DNA of 64,000 nt, taken from contig JANQKZ010000014.1 in NCBI GenBank assembly GCA_028280845.1, forward strand, positions 60,672 through 124,671. The letters run 5' to 3'. The translations under genes were made by a program, and so were the position numbers. Position 1 is the stretch's first letter, and every line of letters begins with the position of its first letter. Below, one piece after another: positions 7,716-57,725 of the stretch. This DNA comes from Opitutales bacterium. Lineage in GTDB: Bacteria > Verrucomicrobiota > Verrucomicrobiia > Opitutales > JABSRG01. A model generated the notes under the pieces. The model worked only from the letters and a program-made list of their open reading frames with translations, made no database searches and had not been told where the DNA came from.

Positions 7716-7752
7716 GACCTTCCGGGATCCTTTCCCGGGAGGTCTTTTTTTT
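7716..7752 (+). terminator. rho-independent terminator
   Basis: 12-bp stem GACCTTCCGGGA / TCCCGGGAGGTC (one G-U pair), 5-nt loop, followed by T8. Confidence 0.85.
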
Positions 7753-26632: not shown

Positions 26633-27644
26633 ATTGCTGGGGTCCAAAGTCTGAAAAGTCGGACTGGTAATAGGCTGTGACCTGTTCACCCGGAGGGACA
26701 ATTGCATCTACTGCGCGGTTATCCTCCTCGGTGATTTCTACGGGGAGGGCGTTGAGATAGGATTCCAACTGGTCCGTGGTCCGCGGGCCTATGATCGGGC
26801 TGGTGATTCCGGGCTGGGACATGGCCCAAGCGGTTGCAAATTCGGCGAGGGTAATCGATTTGGCATTCGCCAGCGGGATAAGGGCCTCGACTGCCTGGAG
26901 GGCTGATTCTCTGAGGCGCATGGCATGCCTCCAGTTTTGCGTGTCGGCGTAGCGGGAGTCCGATGGCGCTTGAGTCGCCTCGGTGGTGGTATATTTGCCG
27001 GTCAAGAGTCCGCCCGCGAGCGGACCAAAGGGAAGGAGTCCAAAACCATAGGTCTGGGCCATCGGGATCAATTCTCTCTCGATTCTTCGATCCAGAATAG
27101 AGTAGGGAGGCTGCTCAGTCACAAACCGATTCAGGTTTAATTCTTTGGCGGTCCATAGCGATTCGACCAATTTCCAGGAGACAAAAAAGCTGGTACCGAT
27201 ATAGCGCACTTTTCCCGCGCGGACCAGGTCATCCAGTGCCCTGAGCGATTCGTCGATGGCGACCTCTGAGCGGGGGCGATGGAGTTGGTAAAGATCGATG
27301 TAGTCTGTTTGCAGCCGCTTCAAACTGGCATCGCACTGTTCGATAATGTGCCGCCGGGAGATGCCCTCCATATTGGGATCATCATCCGCCATGGCGCCGT
27401 GGACCTTGGTCGCCAGGATGACCTGGTTGCGTTTGCCGATGCGCTTCAGTCCTTCACCGGTTATTTCCTCACTGCGGCCTCGTGAATAAACATTGGCCGT
27501 GTCCAACAGGTTAATGCCTGCCCCGATCGCACGATCGATGATCGTGTAAGCGTCTCCAGGGGAGGTTTTACTTCCAAAATTCATGCAACCCAGGGTAAGT
27601 GGGCTGACTTTCAGGCCGGTGCGGCCCAAGAGGCGGTACTTCAT
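26622..27644 (-). CDS. aldo/keto reductase
   Basis: 340 aa. MKYRLLGRTGLKVSPLTLGCMNFG..., DTANVY, and the overall AKR pattern. Confidence 0.9.
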   Translation of the reverse strand: MKYRLLGRTGLKVSPLTLGCMNFGSKTSPGDAYTIIDRAIGAGINLLDTANVYSRGRSEEITGEGLKRIGKRNQVILATKVHGAMADDDPNMEGISRRHIIEQCDASLKRLQTDYIDLYQLHRPRSEVAIDESLRALDDLVRAGKVRYIGTSFFVSWKLVESLWTAKELNLNRFVTEQPPYSILDRRIERELIPMAQTYGFGLLPFGPLAGGLLTGKYTTTEATQAPSDSRYADTQNWRHAMRLRESALQAVEALIPLANAKSITLAEFATAWAMSQPGITSPIIGPRTTDQLESYLNALPVEITEEDNRAVDAIVPPGEQVTAYYQSDFSDFGPQQFRW

Positions 27645-52640: not shown

Positions 52641-52692
52641 GCGAAGTTTTCCCATCCCATCGCGGACACAGTCCGCGAACCCGTATCCTCCG

Positions 52693-52726
52693 GGCCGCTC
52701 TCCATGTGAGAGCGGCCTATTTTTTT
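52693..52726 (+). terminator. rho-independent terminator
   Basis: Perfect 10-bp stem GGCCGCTCTC / GAGAGCGGCC, 5-nt loop, then TATTTTTTT. Confidence 0.85.
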
Positions 52727-53604: not shown

Positions 53605-53632
53605 AAAAAAGCCGGAGTGCAGGCACTCCGGC
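53603..53632 (-). terminator. rho-independent terminator for the DUF481 gene (possibly bidirectional)
   Basis: Inverted repeat GCCGGAGTGC / GCACTCCGGC (53611..53632), followed on the minus strand by T8 (the A8 at 53603..53610 on the plus strand). Confidence 0.8.
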
Positions 53633-53667: not shown

Positions 53668-54711
53668 CTAATCAAAGTTGAGAATGAGGGAGGCGTAGTA
53701 GCGCATATCCCAACTTTCAAACCCGACGGCGGGCTCGCTGTTGTATTTATTTGAGATTCCCAGACCCAGGGACCACCACTTGCTCGGCAGGGGAATTTCG
53801 AAGTCGGTTACATGATTAATGAGGAAGTTACCGAAATCGGAGGTGGCCGGATTGAAATTCAACTCTGTAGCGACGGACCAATAATCATTGTGGGTATATT
53901 TGTGGCTGAGGCCGAAATCCAGAGTCAGGTCATCCTCTGAGATGCTGTCGAGAAAGGTTTGATGGCGGTAAGCGGTACCTACCCGACCCGTCAGGTTATG
54001 GTTGTCCTGATTGATGAAGCGATAGGTTGCCCCCCCACCAGCGGTAGCCCGGAAGTCGAGGTTTTCAAACTCGTCTTTTTCACCTTCGGCCCGGACATAC
54101 CAACCCAAGTCCCCGACCACGAACGATTCATAACGCACACCGCCAACGGTCTCATCATCCGTTTTGACGCCCTCTACCTCGGCTGTGAAGTAGGATCCGT
54201 AAAAGAGCAGGGTGTCGTCGGGACCTTTTAGGGTAGCGCTTCCTCGCAGGCCAAAGCTATTTTCTTCCACATTTCCGGTCTTACCCGCAACATTGCCGGA
54301 AAGGGAGTAAGACCATTTCCGACGCAGGTTTTCTTCGGCCGCGATGAGGGGATCTTTGTCGCCGACATTCCAGGACATGACTACGCGGTCCATAGTGGTG
54401 CTCATGGTGCCGTCATCATTGATGATCTGCATTTCACCATCCGCCCTGGCTTTAACCTGGCCTGACATGGTGTTGCCACTGTCAAGGCGAACGAAGACGG
54501 GATCTTGCGTCTCGAAGGTCACCACTTCTGCAGTGTCAATTTCGAGCGTTCCGGCATAGGACGTTTCGAGTGTGATTTTTCCATTTTCAATCCCCTTGAT
54601 GGTCCCAACAAGCTGGGCTCCATCCCTGGTGGAAACCATATCGGCACCGGCGATAGTTGGAATAAGGATCCACGCCAGGACCGTTACAATTCGATGTGTG
54701 AGTATAGTCAT
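53668..54711 (-). CDS. outer-membrane beta-barrel protein (DUF481/YdiY-like) with an N-terminal soluble repeat domain
   Basis: 347 aa with a signal peptide. The C-terminal two thirds show alternating beta-strand patterning and aromatic-rich strand ends. Confidence 0.6.
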   Translation of the reverse strand: MTILTHRIVTVLAWILIPTIAGADMVSTRDGAQLVGTIKGIENGKITLETSYAGTLEIDTAEVVTFETQDPVFVRLDSGNTMSGQVKARADGEMQIINDDGTMSTTMDRVVMSWNVGDKDPLIAAEENLRRKWSYSLSGNVAGKTGNVEENSFGLRGSATLKGPDDTLLFYGSYFTAEVEGVKTDDETVGGVRYESFVVGDLGWYVRAEGEKDEFENLDFRATAGGGATYRFINQDNHNLTGRVGTAYRHQTFLDSISEDDLTLDFGLSHKYTHNDYWSVATELNFNPATSDFGNFLINHVTDFEIPLPSKWWSLGLGISNKYNSEPAVGFESWDMRYYASLILNFD

Positions 54712-54748
54712 AGGGGTTAAACGTCGTTATGAATTCGGAGTTAAGTAT

Positions 54749-54782
54749 AAAAAAGAGCCCCGGCCACTCAAGGCCGGGACTC
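54749..54782 (-). terminator. rho-independent terminator downstream of ilvB
   Basis: Stem CCCGGCC / GGCCGGG extended by GAG/CTC, then a T-run on the minus strand (A6 at 54749..54754 on the plus strand). Confidence 0.7.
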
Positions 54783-54796
54783 AAATAAAACAGGGC

Positions 54797-56587
54797 CTAC
54801 TTCCCGTTGGGTTTAATGAGGATTTCCTTGGCCGATTTACCCTGCTGGATCATGGGCAGTACGTGCTCGGTATATGGCACAATGACGTCGAGCAGGTAGG
54901 GGCCGTCGTAATCGAGCATTTCCTGGATGGCCTCGCGCAGCTCTTCCTTCTTATAGACCCGCCGAGCCTTCACTCCAAAGCCTTCGGCCACGGTAATGTA
55001 GTCGGGGTAAATGCCGTCGAGGTTTTCCGGGCTGCCGATATTGTCGGGGTCGCCGAGGATGGTCTGAGCGCGGCAGCTTTCATAGAGGAGGTCTTCCCAC
55101 TGGACCACCATACCCAGGTGCTGATTATTCAGGATCATGGTTTTGGCATGGATCTGTTCCACCTTGGCCGTCGCCAATTCTTGAACATTCATCAGAAAGG
55201 AGCCGTCACCGTCGATGTTGATCACCTGGCGGTCGGGGAATGCGACCTTGGCGCCCAGGGCGGCAGGGAGACCGAAGCCCATCGTGCCGAGTCCGAGCGA
55301 GCTGATATAGGTCCGGGGTTCGTTAAAGTTGTAGAACTGAGCCGCCCACATTTGGTGCTGGCCGACGCCAGTGGTAATGATGGCATCTCCCATGGTTTCC
55401 TCGTAGAGTACCTGAACTGCTTCCTGAGACAGAATATGTTTGGATTCGTCGTAAGCGAAGGGATGCTCCTTCTTCCAGGAATTGAGGGTGCTATACCATT
55501 CTGTGTATGGCCTTTTCCGGTAACCGGACTCCTTGATCAAGGTGTTCAGGCGTCCCAGGGCATATTTGATGTCGGTATGGATCGGAAAGTGGGCTTTCTT
55601 GTTCTTGTTGTGCTCCGAGCGATCGATGTCGAAATGGACAATGTAGGATTTCGGGGCAAACATTTCTACCTTGCCGGTGATTCGGTCATCGAAGCGAGCA
55701 CCAGCGCATATGAGCACATCGCTTTCGCACACGGCCCAGTTGCCCGCGACGGATCCATGCATTCCGAACCAGTAGAGGGATTGCGGATGATCTGCGGGAA
55801 AGGCTCCGAGGCCCATGAGGGTCGAGGCCACGGGAAGGTTGGTCAGCTGGGCAAACTCACGCAATTCTTCGTGGGCATCCCCACTGATAATTCCTCCACC
55901 GATGTAAAGGACGGGACGCTCGGCGTTGGTAATGATTTCCAGGATTTTGAGCAGGTCCTCGTCGGGTGCATGAGGTGGCTTCTGGAGACCTGGCAGATCC
56001 AGTTCGGCGGGGAACACGGGCTCCCAGATCTTTTGTTGAACATCTTTGGGGATATCGATTAGCACGGGGCCGGGACGTCCGGAGGTGGCAATGTGAAATG
56101 CTTCTTTGATGATGCGGGGAAGTTCCTCGGCCTCGAGTACCAGGTAGGAGTGTTTCACCACTGGCAAGGTCATGCCATAGACGTCTGTTTCCTGGAAGGC
56201 GGTTTTACCGATGAATTGTTGATACACCTGGCCGGTGATAGCGACGAGGGGAGTGGAGTCCATCCAGGCGTCGGCGATACAGGTGATGAGGTTGGTGGCG
56301 CCTGGGCCACTGGTGGCCATGCAAACTCCGGCCTTGCCGGTGGTTCGCGCGTATCCATGAGCCATGAAGCCGCCACCCTGCTCAAATCGTGGCAATATGG
56401 TGCGGATGTCCTTTTCGCGCTTCACCAGAGCCTGGTGCAACTCCATGGAAGCACCGCCAGGATAGGCAAATACAACGTCCACTCCCTCACGGATCAGGGC
56501 CTCGACGAGCACATCTGCACCTTTCATAGCCGGCAGCTTTTCGTCTTGGGGTGGGAAATCAACAACAGGTTTGGGTTGCGTGGACAT
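54797..56587 (-). CDS. ilvB: acetolactate synthase (acetohydroxyacid synthase) large subunit, biosynthetic type
   Basis: 596 aa. The ThDP enzyme pattern is [31 protein letters not shown], and the TPP motif [16 protein letters not shown]. Confidence 0.95.
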
Positions 56588-56726
56588 GGGATGGATTGGG
56601 TTTGTGTGATGAATGAAATGAAGTGAGGGTGGAGCGAAGTACAGCGAACAGGCTAATCCGGATCGGGGAGTTTCCGAGTCGGGGCAACCTGCATGCTAAG
56701 GTAGGAAGATATGCGCAAGTTGCCCC

Positions 56727-56840
56727 TTAACCGCTTACAACGACGGCTACGAGGACATCAATAATACCAACAACCACCAGGCTCACCAGGGGGAGATCTC
56801 CGGCAGTTCGAATCACAGATGGTTGTTGTAAGTGGGTCAT
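56727..56840 (-). CDS. candidate ilvB leader peptide (37 aa, Val/Ile/Leu-rich)
   Basis: Minus-strand ATG..TAA encodes MTHLQQPSVIRTAGDLPLVSLVVVGIIDVLVAVVVSG. The stop codon abuts the hairpin GGGGCAAC-N30-GTTGCCCC (56726..56681), and the ilvB ATG lies 139 nt downstream. It is below the ORF-track cutoff. Confidence 0.45.
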   Translation of the reverse strand: MTHLQQPSVIRTAGDLPLVSLVVVGIIDVLVAVVVSG

Positions 56841-56915
56841 CAGTTGACAGAGTTGCTTTTCAGAAAGCGGTCCTTACGCTACAAGGATAGCAAAGACGGT
56901 CAATCCGGAAAAACG

Positions 56916-57725
56916 ATGCCACGAATTTTTTTCATAGGAGATATTGTCGGCCGACCCGGTCGGGACATCATAACCAATCACCTCTCCGCGCTCCGGGAAG
57001 CATACCAGGTGGACTTGGCCGTGGCAAACGGGGAAAATGCCGCAGGGGGTTCCGGGATCACCGGTAGTATTGCGGCACAACTGTTGAAGGCGGGAGTTGA
57101 TGGTATCACTTTGGGCGACCATTGCTGGGATCAGAAGGAATGGGCAGCGGAGATTGATCACTATGAACAGGTGTGCCGCCCGGCCAACTTTCCCAGGGCT
57201 CAGCCCGGTCGATCGAGCCTGGTCCTGGATGGTCCTGATGGATTCCGATTGGGGATAGTCACAGTCCTTGGGCGACAGTATATGAAGGTGCATACGGAGG
57301 ATCCGTTTGCCTGTGCGGACCGGATGTTGGCCGAGCTGGAAACCCAAGGAGTAGCCCATGTGCTGGTCGAGATTCATGCAGAAGCGACGAGTGAGAAGGT
57401 GGCTATGGGTTGGCATTTGGACGGGCGTGCCATCGGCGTGATTGGCACGCATACACATATTCCGACGGCAGATCTCAAGGTTTTACCCCAGGGAAGTGCC
57501 TATCAGACAGATGTCGGGATGACCGGGCCCTACCGATCAGTTTTGGGCCGTGACGTGAATGCGGTGTTGGGGAAATTTCGTGATGGAATGCCAAGGCGTT
57601 TCCCCGTAGCCGAACAGGACGTAAAACTCTGTGGCTGTATTCTCGACTTTGATCCTGAAGCAGGGCGAGTGTTGGCTGTCGAACAAGTAATCTACCCCTT
57701 ACCAGCTGTAGTGGAAGACCCATGA
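56916..57725 (+). CDS. ymdB: YmdB-family metallophosphoesterase (2',3'-cyclic-nucleotide phosphodiesterase-like)
   Basis: The ATG at 56916 gives MPRIFFIGDIVGRPGRD...NGENAAGG. The track ORF starts at 56832. Confidence 0.85.
   Translation: MPRIFFIGDIVGRPGRDIITNHLSALREAYQVDLAVANGENAAGGSGITGSIAAQLLKAGVDGITLGDHCWDQKEWAAEIDHYEQVCRPANFPRAQPGRSSLVLDGPDGFRLGIVTVLGRQYMKVHTEDPFACADRMLAELETQGVAHVLVEIHAEATSEKVAMGWHLDGRAIGVIGTHTHIPTADLKVLPQGSAYQTDVGMTGPYRSVLGRDVNAVLGKFRDGMPRRFPVAEQDVKLCGCILDFDPEAGRVLAVEQVIYPLPAVVEDP

Follow-up and report, generated by a model that had tools for sequence, protein, structure and literature searches.

A candidate valine-sensing leader peptide upstream of ilvB in Opitutales, with a hairpin at its stop codon and no intrinsic terminator

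In Escherichia coli, ivbL is the leader peptide of ilvBN and mediates classical ribosome-mediated transcription attenuation. Other leader systems depend on Rho, such as tnaC in E. coli and mgtL in Salmonella; in tnaC, a rut site is kept covered by a ribosome that has stalled at the stop codon. Here, we analyze a 37-codon open reading frame (ORF) and an adjoining hairpin that lie upstream of ilvB in a 64,000-nucleotide (nt) stretch of DNA from an Opitutales bacterium (Verrucomicrobiota; GenBank assembly GCA_028280845.1, contig JANQKZ010000014.1, positions 60,672 to 124,671), which we will term the window. We propose that this ORF is a functional Val-sensing leader peptide (an upstream ORF, or uORF) for ilvB, with a non-classical and possibly Rho-dependent output, and we put the probability of this reading at roughly 0.6. 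A preliminary description of the locus, made from the sequence alone, had suggested a branched-chain-amino-acid (BCAA) leader peptide.

Control of ilvB by a uORF is a textbook mechanism that is increasingly seen as widespread. Attenuation of this kind has been described as common, and the reported examples include the Corynebacterium ilvB-II, ilvB-OMG, and Leptospira ilvB motifs (PMC10272879). Attenuation by the ilvB1 leader of Mycobacterium tuberculosis was shown by 3'-end mapping and by deletion of the terminator (PMC13236596). Leader peptides without terminators are found in mycobacterial cys operons, for which a Rho-dependent reading like that of tna was proposed (PMC1262725). In the collections and literature that we searched, there is no record of such control from Verrucomicrobiota: no paper that connects Verrucomicrobia with leader peptides and attenuation came up in full-text searches, and Rfam 15, with its amino-acid leaders, ilvB-associated motifs, T-box, and ppGpp riboswitch, gave no matches at E up to 10 in 56300..57100 and none at the gathering score in the whole window or in the nine related loci that we scanned.

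The leader in the window resembles ivbL in that a short ORF, with Val runs near its C-terminus, precedes the gene for the large subunit of acetolactate synthase, and in that it presumably senses charged tRNA by stalling. However, ivbL has a terminator hairpin with a U-tract and a competing antiterminator, whereas the window has no U-tract and no alternative pairing between the leader and the hairpin, and there is no sequence similarity between the two peptides (no Pfam families). The Corynebacterium ilvB-II leader (PMC10272879, PMC11857589) and the M. tuberculosis ilvB1 leader (PMC13236596) also have a BCAA-rich uORF within a long ilvB leader. In these actinobacterial leaders, as in ours, what relatives share is the enrichment and not a particular sequence, and the same logic of a ribosome footprint at the stall codons versus the stop codon applies. 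They differ from the window in that a Rho-independent terminator with a U-tract has been mapped or predicted in them and an antiterminator defined, neither of which the window shows, and they belong to another phylum. The ilvB-OMG and Leptospira ilvB motifs (PMC10272879) are, like ours, lineage-specific ilvB leaders with BCAA-rich uORFs and at least three consecutive Val codons, but their structures are unrelated to the window's. Finally, the Mycobacterium cys leaders (PMC1262725), tnaC, and mgtL share with the window regulatory codons near the stop of the uORF, the lack of an intrinsic terminator, a pyrimidine-rich or C-rich untranslated spacer for possible Rho loading, and a presumed signal that is a ribosome near the stop codon. 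Relative to tnaC, the conserved element beside the stop codon in the window is a hairpin, the regulated gene is biosynthetic, and the role of Rho is putative. Overall, the window's leader would work like an ilvB leader-peptide attenuator in which the sensor is ordinary and the replacement of the terminator by a hairpin that abuts the stop codon is specific to the clade.

The main features, in coordinates of the window, are:

56840..56727, minus strand: leader ORF, ATG to TAA, 37 codons, encoding MTHLQQPSVIRTAGDLPLVSLVVVGIIDVLVAVVVSG (read from the sequence and the ORF list)
56736..56795, minus strand: Val-rich segment, putatively regulatory, codons 16-35 (residue counts and codon phase)
56681..56726, minus strand: hairpin B, GGGGCAACUUGCGC...GCAGGUUGCCCC, with a pyrimidine-rich loop (folding and shuffles)
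56563..56670, minus strand: spacer and ilvB start, C-rich, G-poor, rut-like, and predicted to be unstructured (composition and folds)
54797..56587, minus strand: ilvB, biosynthetic acetolactate synthase large subunit, 596 amino acids, the putatively regulated gene (TIGR00118)

The whole arrangement of leader ORF, hairpin, and spacer fits within an intergenic region of 328 nt. The leader ORF ends with TAA at 56729..56727, which is 139 nt upstream of the ilvB ATG at 56587, and both the ORF and its peptide are exactly as in the preliminary description. That description had counted 15 Val, Ile, or Leu among the last 19 residues, which is not correct (there are 13); 15 is the count for the 20 residues at codons 16-35, which comprise 9 Val, 2 Ile, and 4 Leu and include the runs VVV, II, and VVV. 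The final Val run is two codons short of the stop. To put this in perspective, the window has 850 ORFs of 15-70 amino acids on its two strands, and none but the leader reaches 7 Val, or 13 Ile, Leu, or Val, in any 20 residues (its best 20 residues have 9 and 15).

The Val codons seem to be maintained as codons. GT dinucleotides in the Val-rich segment are distributed across the three codon phases as 9:2:0, and across the last 20 codons of the leaders from ten loci as 80:11:1. In these ten loci, Val is spelled with all four synonymous codons, and the synonymous choice varies. Because GT is locked to the codon phase while all four Val codons are used, selection appears to act on codon identity in one reading frame and not on the RNA sequence. 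The peptides do not belong to known families: five leader peptides had no Pfam family at E up to 10, and the window's had no NCBIfam family. Our analysis argues for annotating the ORF and the hairpin as a regulatory leader rather than as a hypothetical protein. Val-rich leaders are already being deposited as anonymous small proteins, as in L165 and L169, two of the related loci discussed below, where gene callers made hypothetical proteins without Pfam hits out of the leader ORFs (L165, 1610-1771, 53 amino acids; L169, 261-389, 42 amino acids).

The strongest named matches to ilvB are from Opitutales and Puniceicoccaceae (Verrucomicrobiota). A protein search gave closer relatives of ilvB, at 75-83% identity, and we fetched their contigs. 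These include seven distinct closest lineages (L161, L164, L165, L166, L168, L169, and L170; ilvB 76-83% identical), which form a single clade with the window in a neighbor-joining tree of ilvB. In all seven, a small Val-biased ORF occupies the equivalent position on the strand of ilvB and stops 96-293 nt short of the gene, so that the proposed BCAA leader peptide, for which conservation had been suggested as a check, is supported. The C-termini of these leaders, each followed by the stop codon, are:

L165: ...RVSVVVVAGVVGLDA
L161: ...VVPVVRSSVQVVVA
L169: ...VADVVGVLGVAVVVRA
L164: ...VLPVVRLLVGVRSSRRVVV
L166: ...LSLVVTVVLLLTSVRVLVVM
L168: ...LLPVVVSVVVVSVA
L170: ...ALEGVVVVTVDVVS

The leader peptides cannot be aligned, and they range from 31 to 42 residues. 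In each, 8-11 Val cluster in the C-terminal half, and a Val run comes within 1-6 codons of the stop. The numbers of Ile (0-3) and Leu (1-7) are variable. As these counts vary while Val stays, Val, not Ile or Leu, is the conserved signal, which refines the Val/Ile/Leu enrichment that was first noted. Also, the Val-rich stretches of the orthologs are interrupted by Arg, Ser, Gln, or Asp (for example ...VVPVVRSSVQVVVA, ...VRLLVGVRSSRRVVV, and RVVPVVRSSVQVVVA), which excludes a conserved transmembrane helix.

Across all of the loci that we fetched, leader-like Val-rich ORFs are concentrated where a leader would be: 22 lie in the 450 nt of sense sequence upstream of ilvB, versus 73 in the remainder, which is about 25-fold larger. 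A Val-rich ORF was not found in relatives of the Coraliomargarita/Lentimonas type, Cerasicoccus, or Opitutaceae, nor among the relatives listed by motif-pattern scans of contigs, whose ilvB are at most 74% identical. Separate Val/Ile-rich leaders are present in a second verrucomicrobial clade (L011 and L092) and at loci of Latescibacterota, Acidobacteriota, and Alphaproteobacteria.

The 5' arm of hairpin B opens at the first base after TAA, and the preliminary description was right that a GC-rich hairpin (56726..56681) directly abuts the stop codon. The arms, GGGGCAAC...GTTGCCCC, form 8 perfect base pairs (bp) with 30 nt between them. The predicted energy is −23.2 kcal/mol (z = −3.97), and none of 200 shuffled sequences folds as well. 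In the minimum-free-energy (MFE) fold, 16 nt of the loop are unpaired, and GACUCGG follows the hairpin. The pattern of the arms occurs once in the window (none are expected from shuffles) and, among 178 fetched loci, only in L165, so we rejected the idea that B is a dispersed repeat.

Five of the seven relatives (L165, L161, L169, L166, and L168) have a hairpin that either includes the stop codon or begins 0-1 nt after it. In L165, the arms are identical to those of B and the loop is different. The arms in the other four are:

L161: GGGCUGGCG/CGCUUGCCC
L169: GAGAGGUUG/CAACCUCUC
L166: GGGCUCGCC/GGUGAGCCC
L168: GGCAAGCGG/CCGCGUUGCC

At the six loci with stop-abutting hairpins, z ranges from −2.1 to −5.3, and the loops of the five simple hairpins are pyrimidine-rich, with 12-22 unpaired nt in the MFE folds. 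We compared the stems between individual folds, with no covariation tool, because the loop lengths differ and a MAFFT alignment was unusable. That different sequences form a hairpin at one position argues for a structural role that is tied to the stop codon.

As the preliminary description had suspected from the lack of a U-tract, hairpin B is not followed by anything that looks like a terminator. The longest run of T between the leader stop and ilvB is 3, and a terminator scan of 56300..57200 found no terminator-like site. In contrast, there are canonical terminators elsewhere in the window, with long GC-rich stems, loops of 4-6 nt, and six to eight T's:

54755..54782, minus strand: intrinsic terminator right after ilvB (read as 54782..54755), with an 11-bp stem that includes 9 GC pairs and then TTTTTT
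53632..53611: canonical terminator after the next gene
52692..52718 and 7716..7744: further canonical terminators

As this genome uses canonical terminators, the missing terminator in the leader is not a property of the genome. By these scans, the window's leader would not be a classical attenuator: it lacks the terminator that defines the ivbL type.

Three other Verrucomicrobiota do have a canonical terminator with a U-tract after a Val-rich leader, namely L164, which is an Opitutales metagenome-assembled genome (MAG) inside the clade, and L011 and L092, which are outside it. Their leaders end 87-129 nt before ilvB. Their hairpins are strong, and unlike the window, they do not have a B-type hairpin that abuts the stop codon. 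In all three, the 5' arm of the terminator can base-pair with a stretch from the ORF's end (−16 kcal/mol in L164, −13 in L011, and −22 in L092; these are duplex energies only, with no shuffle control). Thus, these loci have the classical attenuator design. The leaders of L011 (2790-2865) and L092 (2226-2331), which are Pedosphaerae-like, share the peptide motif G(S)DAVG. The codons for this motif, GCCGUUGG, are complementary to the 5' arm CCCACGGC of the terminator AAAAACCCACGGCUGG...CGGCUGUGGGUUUUUU, and the conservation of the peptide probably reflects an antiterminator RNA. Leaders in other phyla are also followed by terminators. L014, L064, L076, L080, and L159 (from Latescibacterota, Acidobacteriota (Bryobacterales), one alphaproteobacterium, and one metagenome contig) have, 87-116 nt upstream of ilvB, a Val/Ile-rich small ORF with a canonical terminator behind it.

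The region between hairpin B and ilvB is unusual in its composition. The spacer has 33 C and 5 G in 78 nt, which is in the top 0.2-0.5% of all 78-nt segments of the window on either strand, and the start of ilvB has a C>G skew of 0.36 (versus a mean of 0.03), which ties for the highest of 40 starts of long ORFs. (The other is the gene start at 27644 on the minus strand, with a skew of 0.36 over −60..+18.) The start of ilvB is predicted to be unpaired in all of the folds, whether free or constrained by a ribosome (modeled as a 30-nt footprint that covers either the stop codon or, in turn, each of the Val runs). Such a C-rich, G-poor spacer has the composition that would be expected of a Rho loading site. 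In L168, the spacer between the leader and ilvB (1708-2000) is 293 nt long and possibly holds an inserted element, as CTTTGA(A/C)C is repeated there in tandem and GTCAGAATTCTGAAGGCAGAA ... TTCTGAATTCTGCC form a long inverted repeat.

We propose the following mechanism. Transcription would start about 30 nt upstream of the ORF, and ribosomes would translate the 37 codons. If charged tRNA-Val were scarce (and in this genome perhaps also tRNA-Ile or tRNA-Leu), then the ribosome would stall in the Val-rich second half. When Val is plentiful, a ribosome at the stop codon would cover about 12 nt downstream and would have to melt the 5' arm of hairpin B, whereas a ribosome that is stalled at an upstream Val codon would leave B folded. 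Folded B would be the ON state, and melted B would license premature loss of the transcript within the 139-nt spacer. By elimination, the effector might be factor-dependent, Rho-type termination in the C-rich spacer. Given the lack of a U-tract, a start that is never sequestered in the predicted folds, and the extreme C>G tract, Rho-type termination appears to be the likeliest effector. In the window, the freed 3' arm of B could also refold into hairpin C, which is one of three further predicted structures:

56642..56698, minus strand: alternative hairpin C, in which GCAGGUUG pairs with UAGCCUGU, enclosing hairpin D (constrained fold)
56663..56677, minus strand: small hairpin D (UCGG-AAACUCC-CCGA), directly after B (folds)
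56727..56749, minus strand: weak hairpin A (UAGCCGU...GCGGUUA) at the end of the ORF, with a 3' arm that includes the stop codon (MFE folds)

Hairpin C re-uses the 3' arm of B, so that the two are mutually exclusive, and it is predicted only if the 5' arm of B is occluded. The whole fold that includes C, computed for a ribosome sitting on the stop codon, is at −24.4 kcal/mol. The proposal makes two predictions. Breaking B by changing GGGGCAAC to CCCCGUUG would give constitutively low ilvB, and a compensatory change in the 3' arm would restore it; and loss of the leader start or of the Val codons would abolish the response to Val. That the leader is a sensor that gauges charged tRNA-Val through the speed of the ribosome seems well supported, and the comparison with relatives is the decisive evidence. 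What the sequences show directly is the ORF, its conservation, the constraint on its codons, the conserved hairpin, and the missing terminator; translation, stalling, the sign of the regulation, and the parts that B and perhaps Rho would play are inferred.

Several observations weigh against this proposal. First, MFE folds of the leader with masked ribosome footprints, a check that the preliminary description had suggested, show no conserved switch among the states. An analog of hairpin C is present in L168 but is absent from L165, L161, L169, and L166, which are four of the six loci with a B-type hairpin, so we dropped C as a conserved 3:4 element. Second, the hairpin of L170 lies about 12 nt further upstream, with its 5' arm in the last Val and Ser codons, and is weak (z = −0.84). 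Third, the C>G bias is also seen in L164, which has a terminator and the highest C content, and in relatives without a leader. Thus, the skew of the spacer is not specific evidence and cannot serve as a marker of terminator-less leaders; it may be merely a feature of translation initiation. Fourth, the relatives are all from metagenome or read-set assemblies (the named ones are labeled as MAGs). Fifth, a strict promoter scan made no call at the hexamers that we assign to the promoter (TTGACC/TAGCGT, see below), so the promoter rests on resemblance to the consensus. Finally, in Streptomyces coelicolor, mutating the candidate regulatory codons of the ilvB leader was reportedly without effect (according to the passage of PMC1262725 that cites this work), so a leader-like ORF does not guarantee attenuation.

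A more specific version of the proposal is that the terminator-less design belongs to one clade of Opitutales, that the stop-codon hairpin, as the sole conserved RNA element, gates Rho or another factor in the C-rich spacer, and that the terminator module was exchanged within the clade, with L164 keeping its terminator. We offer this version only tentatively and consider it doubtful as a whole. If true, an intrinsic-terminator output would have been swapped for a ribosome-gated, factor-dependent one inside a single clade. Either way, the clade offers a natural comparison, with close relatives that share the putative Val-sensing leader and differ in what follows it, a canonical terminator in one case and just the hairpin at the stop codon in the others. 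It would allow tests of how the output modules of attenuators are replaced in evolution, and of whether leader peptides drive factor-dependent termination of biosynthetic genes beyond the model phyla.

The main alternative to Rho-type termination is a post-transcriptional read-out, in which the stalled ribosome and/or hairpin B alter the stability or the processing of the mRNA. For example, the ribosome could block scanning by a 5'-end-dependent RNase, or processing could leave B as a protective 5' stem-loop. This would account for the lack of a terminator and for a stable hairpin that is conserved at a fixed position. Also, because the start of ilvB is always open, on/off sequestration is unlikely, and differences in half-life are possible. 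However, nothing in the sequence points to this directly, and it does not explain why the hairpin starts exactly at the stop codon. We consider it unlikely, although less so than the other alternatives.

Second, hairpin B could be an intrinsic terminator that does not need a U-tract, as part of classical attenuation. B is GC-rich and stable, and L164 in the clade and L011 and L092 further off carry true terminators after the same kind of leader. But the terminators of this genome have small loops and a run of T's, while in B the loop is large and GACUCGG comes next. In loci of the window's type, pairing of the leader codons with either arm of B does not exceed that of shuffled sequences, which gives no sign of an antiterminator, and we abandoned the leader codons in that role. 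The sign would also be wrong: B would be prevented from forming by a ribosome that has reached the stop codon and permitted by one that has stalled through starvation, so that ilvB would fall when Val is short. This makes a U-less terminator very unlikely.

A third possibility is translational attenuation, as in ermC: the G/U-rich Val codons, or B, would sequester the start of ilvB unless a ribosome stalls. The Val half of the leader is G/U-rich and the start of ilvB is C/A-rich, so the two are complementary in composition. Yet duplexes between them are no better than those of dinucleotide-shuffled sequences (z from −1.7 to +2.1 across ten loci), which led us to reject this pairing. Besides the unpaired start noted above, the 139 nt between the leader stop and the start of ilvB also speak against it. 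There is little chance that this explanation is correct.

Fourth, the leader might be a relic: a former classical attenuator, now in decay, whose terminator is gone and which regulates nothing. L164 is nested in the clade and keeps a canonical terminator, a hint that output modules are replaced or lost over time. However, the window and six terminator-less relatives keep an open frame, a start codon, and 8-11 in-phase Val codons, and most keep the stop-abutting hairpin even though the flanks have diverged beyond alignment. This implies ongoing selection, and decay is correspondingly improbable.

Finally, it is extremely unlikely that the ORF encodes a small hydrophobic membrane peptide unrelated to ilvB control, which the preliminary description had allowed for as a single-transmembrane protein, or that it arose by chance: the window's peptide alone has a hydrophobic C-terminal half of about 20 residues, while its orthologs have Arg, Ser, Gln, and Asp in the Val-rich part, and conserve neither sequence nor length, the Pfam and NCBIfam searches above gave no matches, and chance is excluded by the uniqueness of the ORF in the window and by its recurrence in seven related lineages.

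Returning to the Val-sensing leader that we favor, its predicted promoter is defined by two elements:

56898..56903, minus strand: −35-like hexamer TTGACC of the predicted promoter for the leader and ilvB (resemblance to the consensus only)
56876..56881, minus strand: −10-like hexamer TAGCGT, 16 nt past the −35-like hexamer (resemblance to the consensus)

The window and six of its seven relatives (all but L168, for which the upstream sequence was not included) have TTGACC or TTGACG at a distance of 54-73 nt ahead of the leader's start codon, and a TA-rich hexamer follows it after 16-18 nt. The −10 counterparts at equal spacing are TAGCTT in L165 and TAGGTT in L169. The promoter is plausible, and its predicted transcription start, near 56869, would give a 5' untranslated region of about 30 nt.

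The ilvB product scores 691 bits against TIGR00118 (cutoff 538) and has the N, M, and C domains of the TPP_enzyme families. Because a canonical terminator sits right after it, ilvB is monocistronic, and neither ilvN nor ilvC is adjacent to it in the window. The divergent gene upstream, which starts at 56916, encodes a metallophosphoesterase of the YmdB type. The next gene on the same strand (53668-54711, minus) encodes a DUF481 protein, and ilvB is paired with DUF481 in most of the Opitutales relatives that we fetched. Two ORFs antisense to ilvB (54572-56062, plus, 496 amino acids; 56093-56626, plus, 177 amino acids) are most likely shadow ORFs.

As for the smaller structures, hairpins are also predicted at the end of the ORF, as for A, in L165, L169, and L166, and a short second hairpin is predicted behind B, as for D, in L165, L161, L169, and L166. 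Two other pairings were considered and dropped. Pairing of the N-terminal half of the leader with the Val half, as a conserved "protector", had z = −2.2 in the window and was not reproduced in the relatives. Judged by eye, the window and L165 have a possible pseudoknot that joins UUCC, in the loop of B, to a downstream GGAA, but L166 and L169 lack it.

Other loci have different elements upstream of ilvB. The leaderless loci of the Coraliomargarita/Lentimonas type (L172-L175 and L081) have a conserved promoter-like block, GCTTGATTT...(T/G)(A/G)CTGTCTTT, about 85-110 nt upstream of ilvB, followed by a short hairpin and a C/A-rich start region; this 5' region is of a different and uncharacterized kind. 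In Solirubrobacterales-type loci (L033, L043, and L048), a conserved hydrophobic ORF of 58-63 amino acids (for example ...LVFLVAAWLLLGVIVHVV...VVWALRILL) lies about 1.0-1.5 kb upstream of ilvB, and Thermoleophilaceae (L039 and L063) have a similar 56-amino-acid hydrophobic ORF. Unlike the leader, this ORF is conserved in sequence, so it looks like a genuine small membrane protein.

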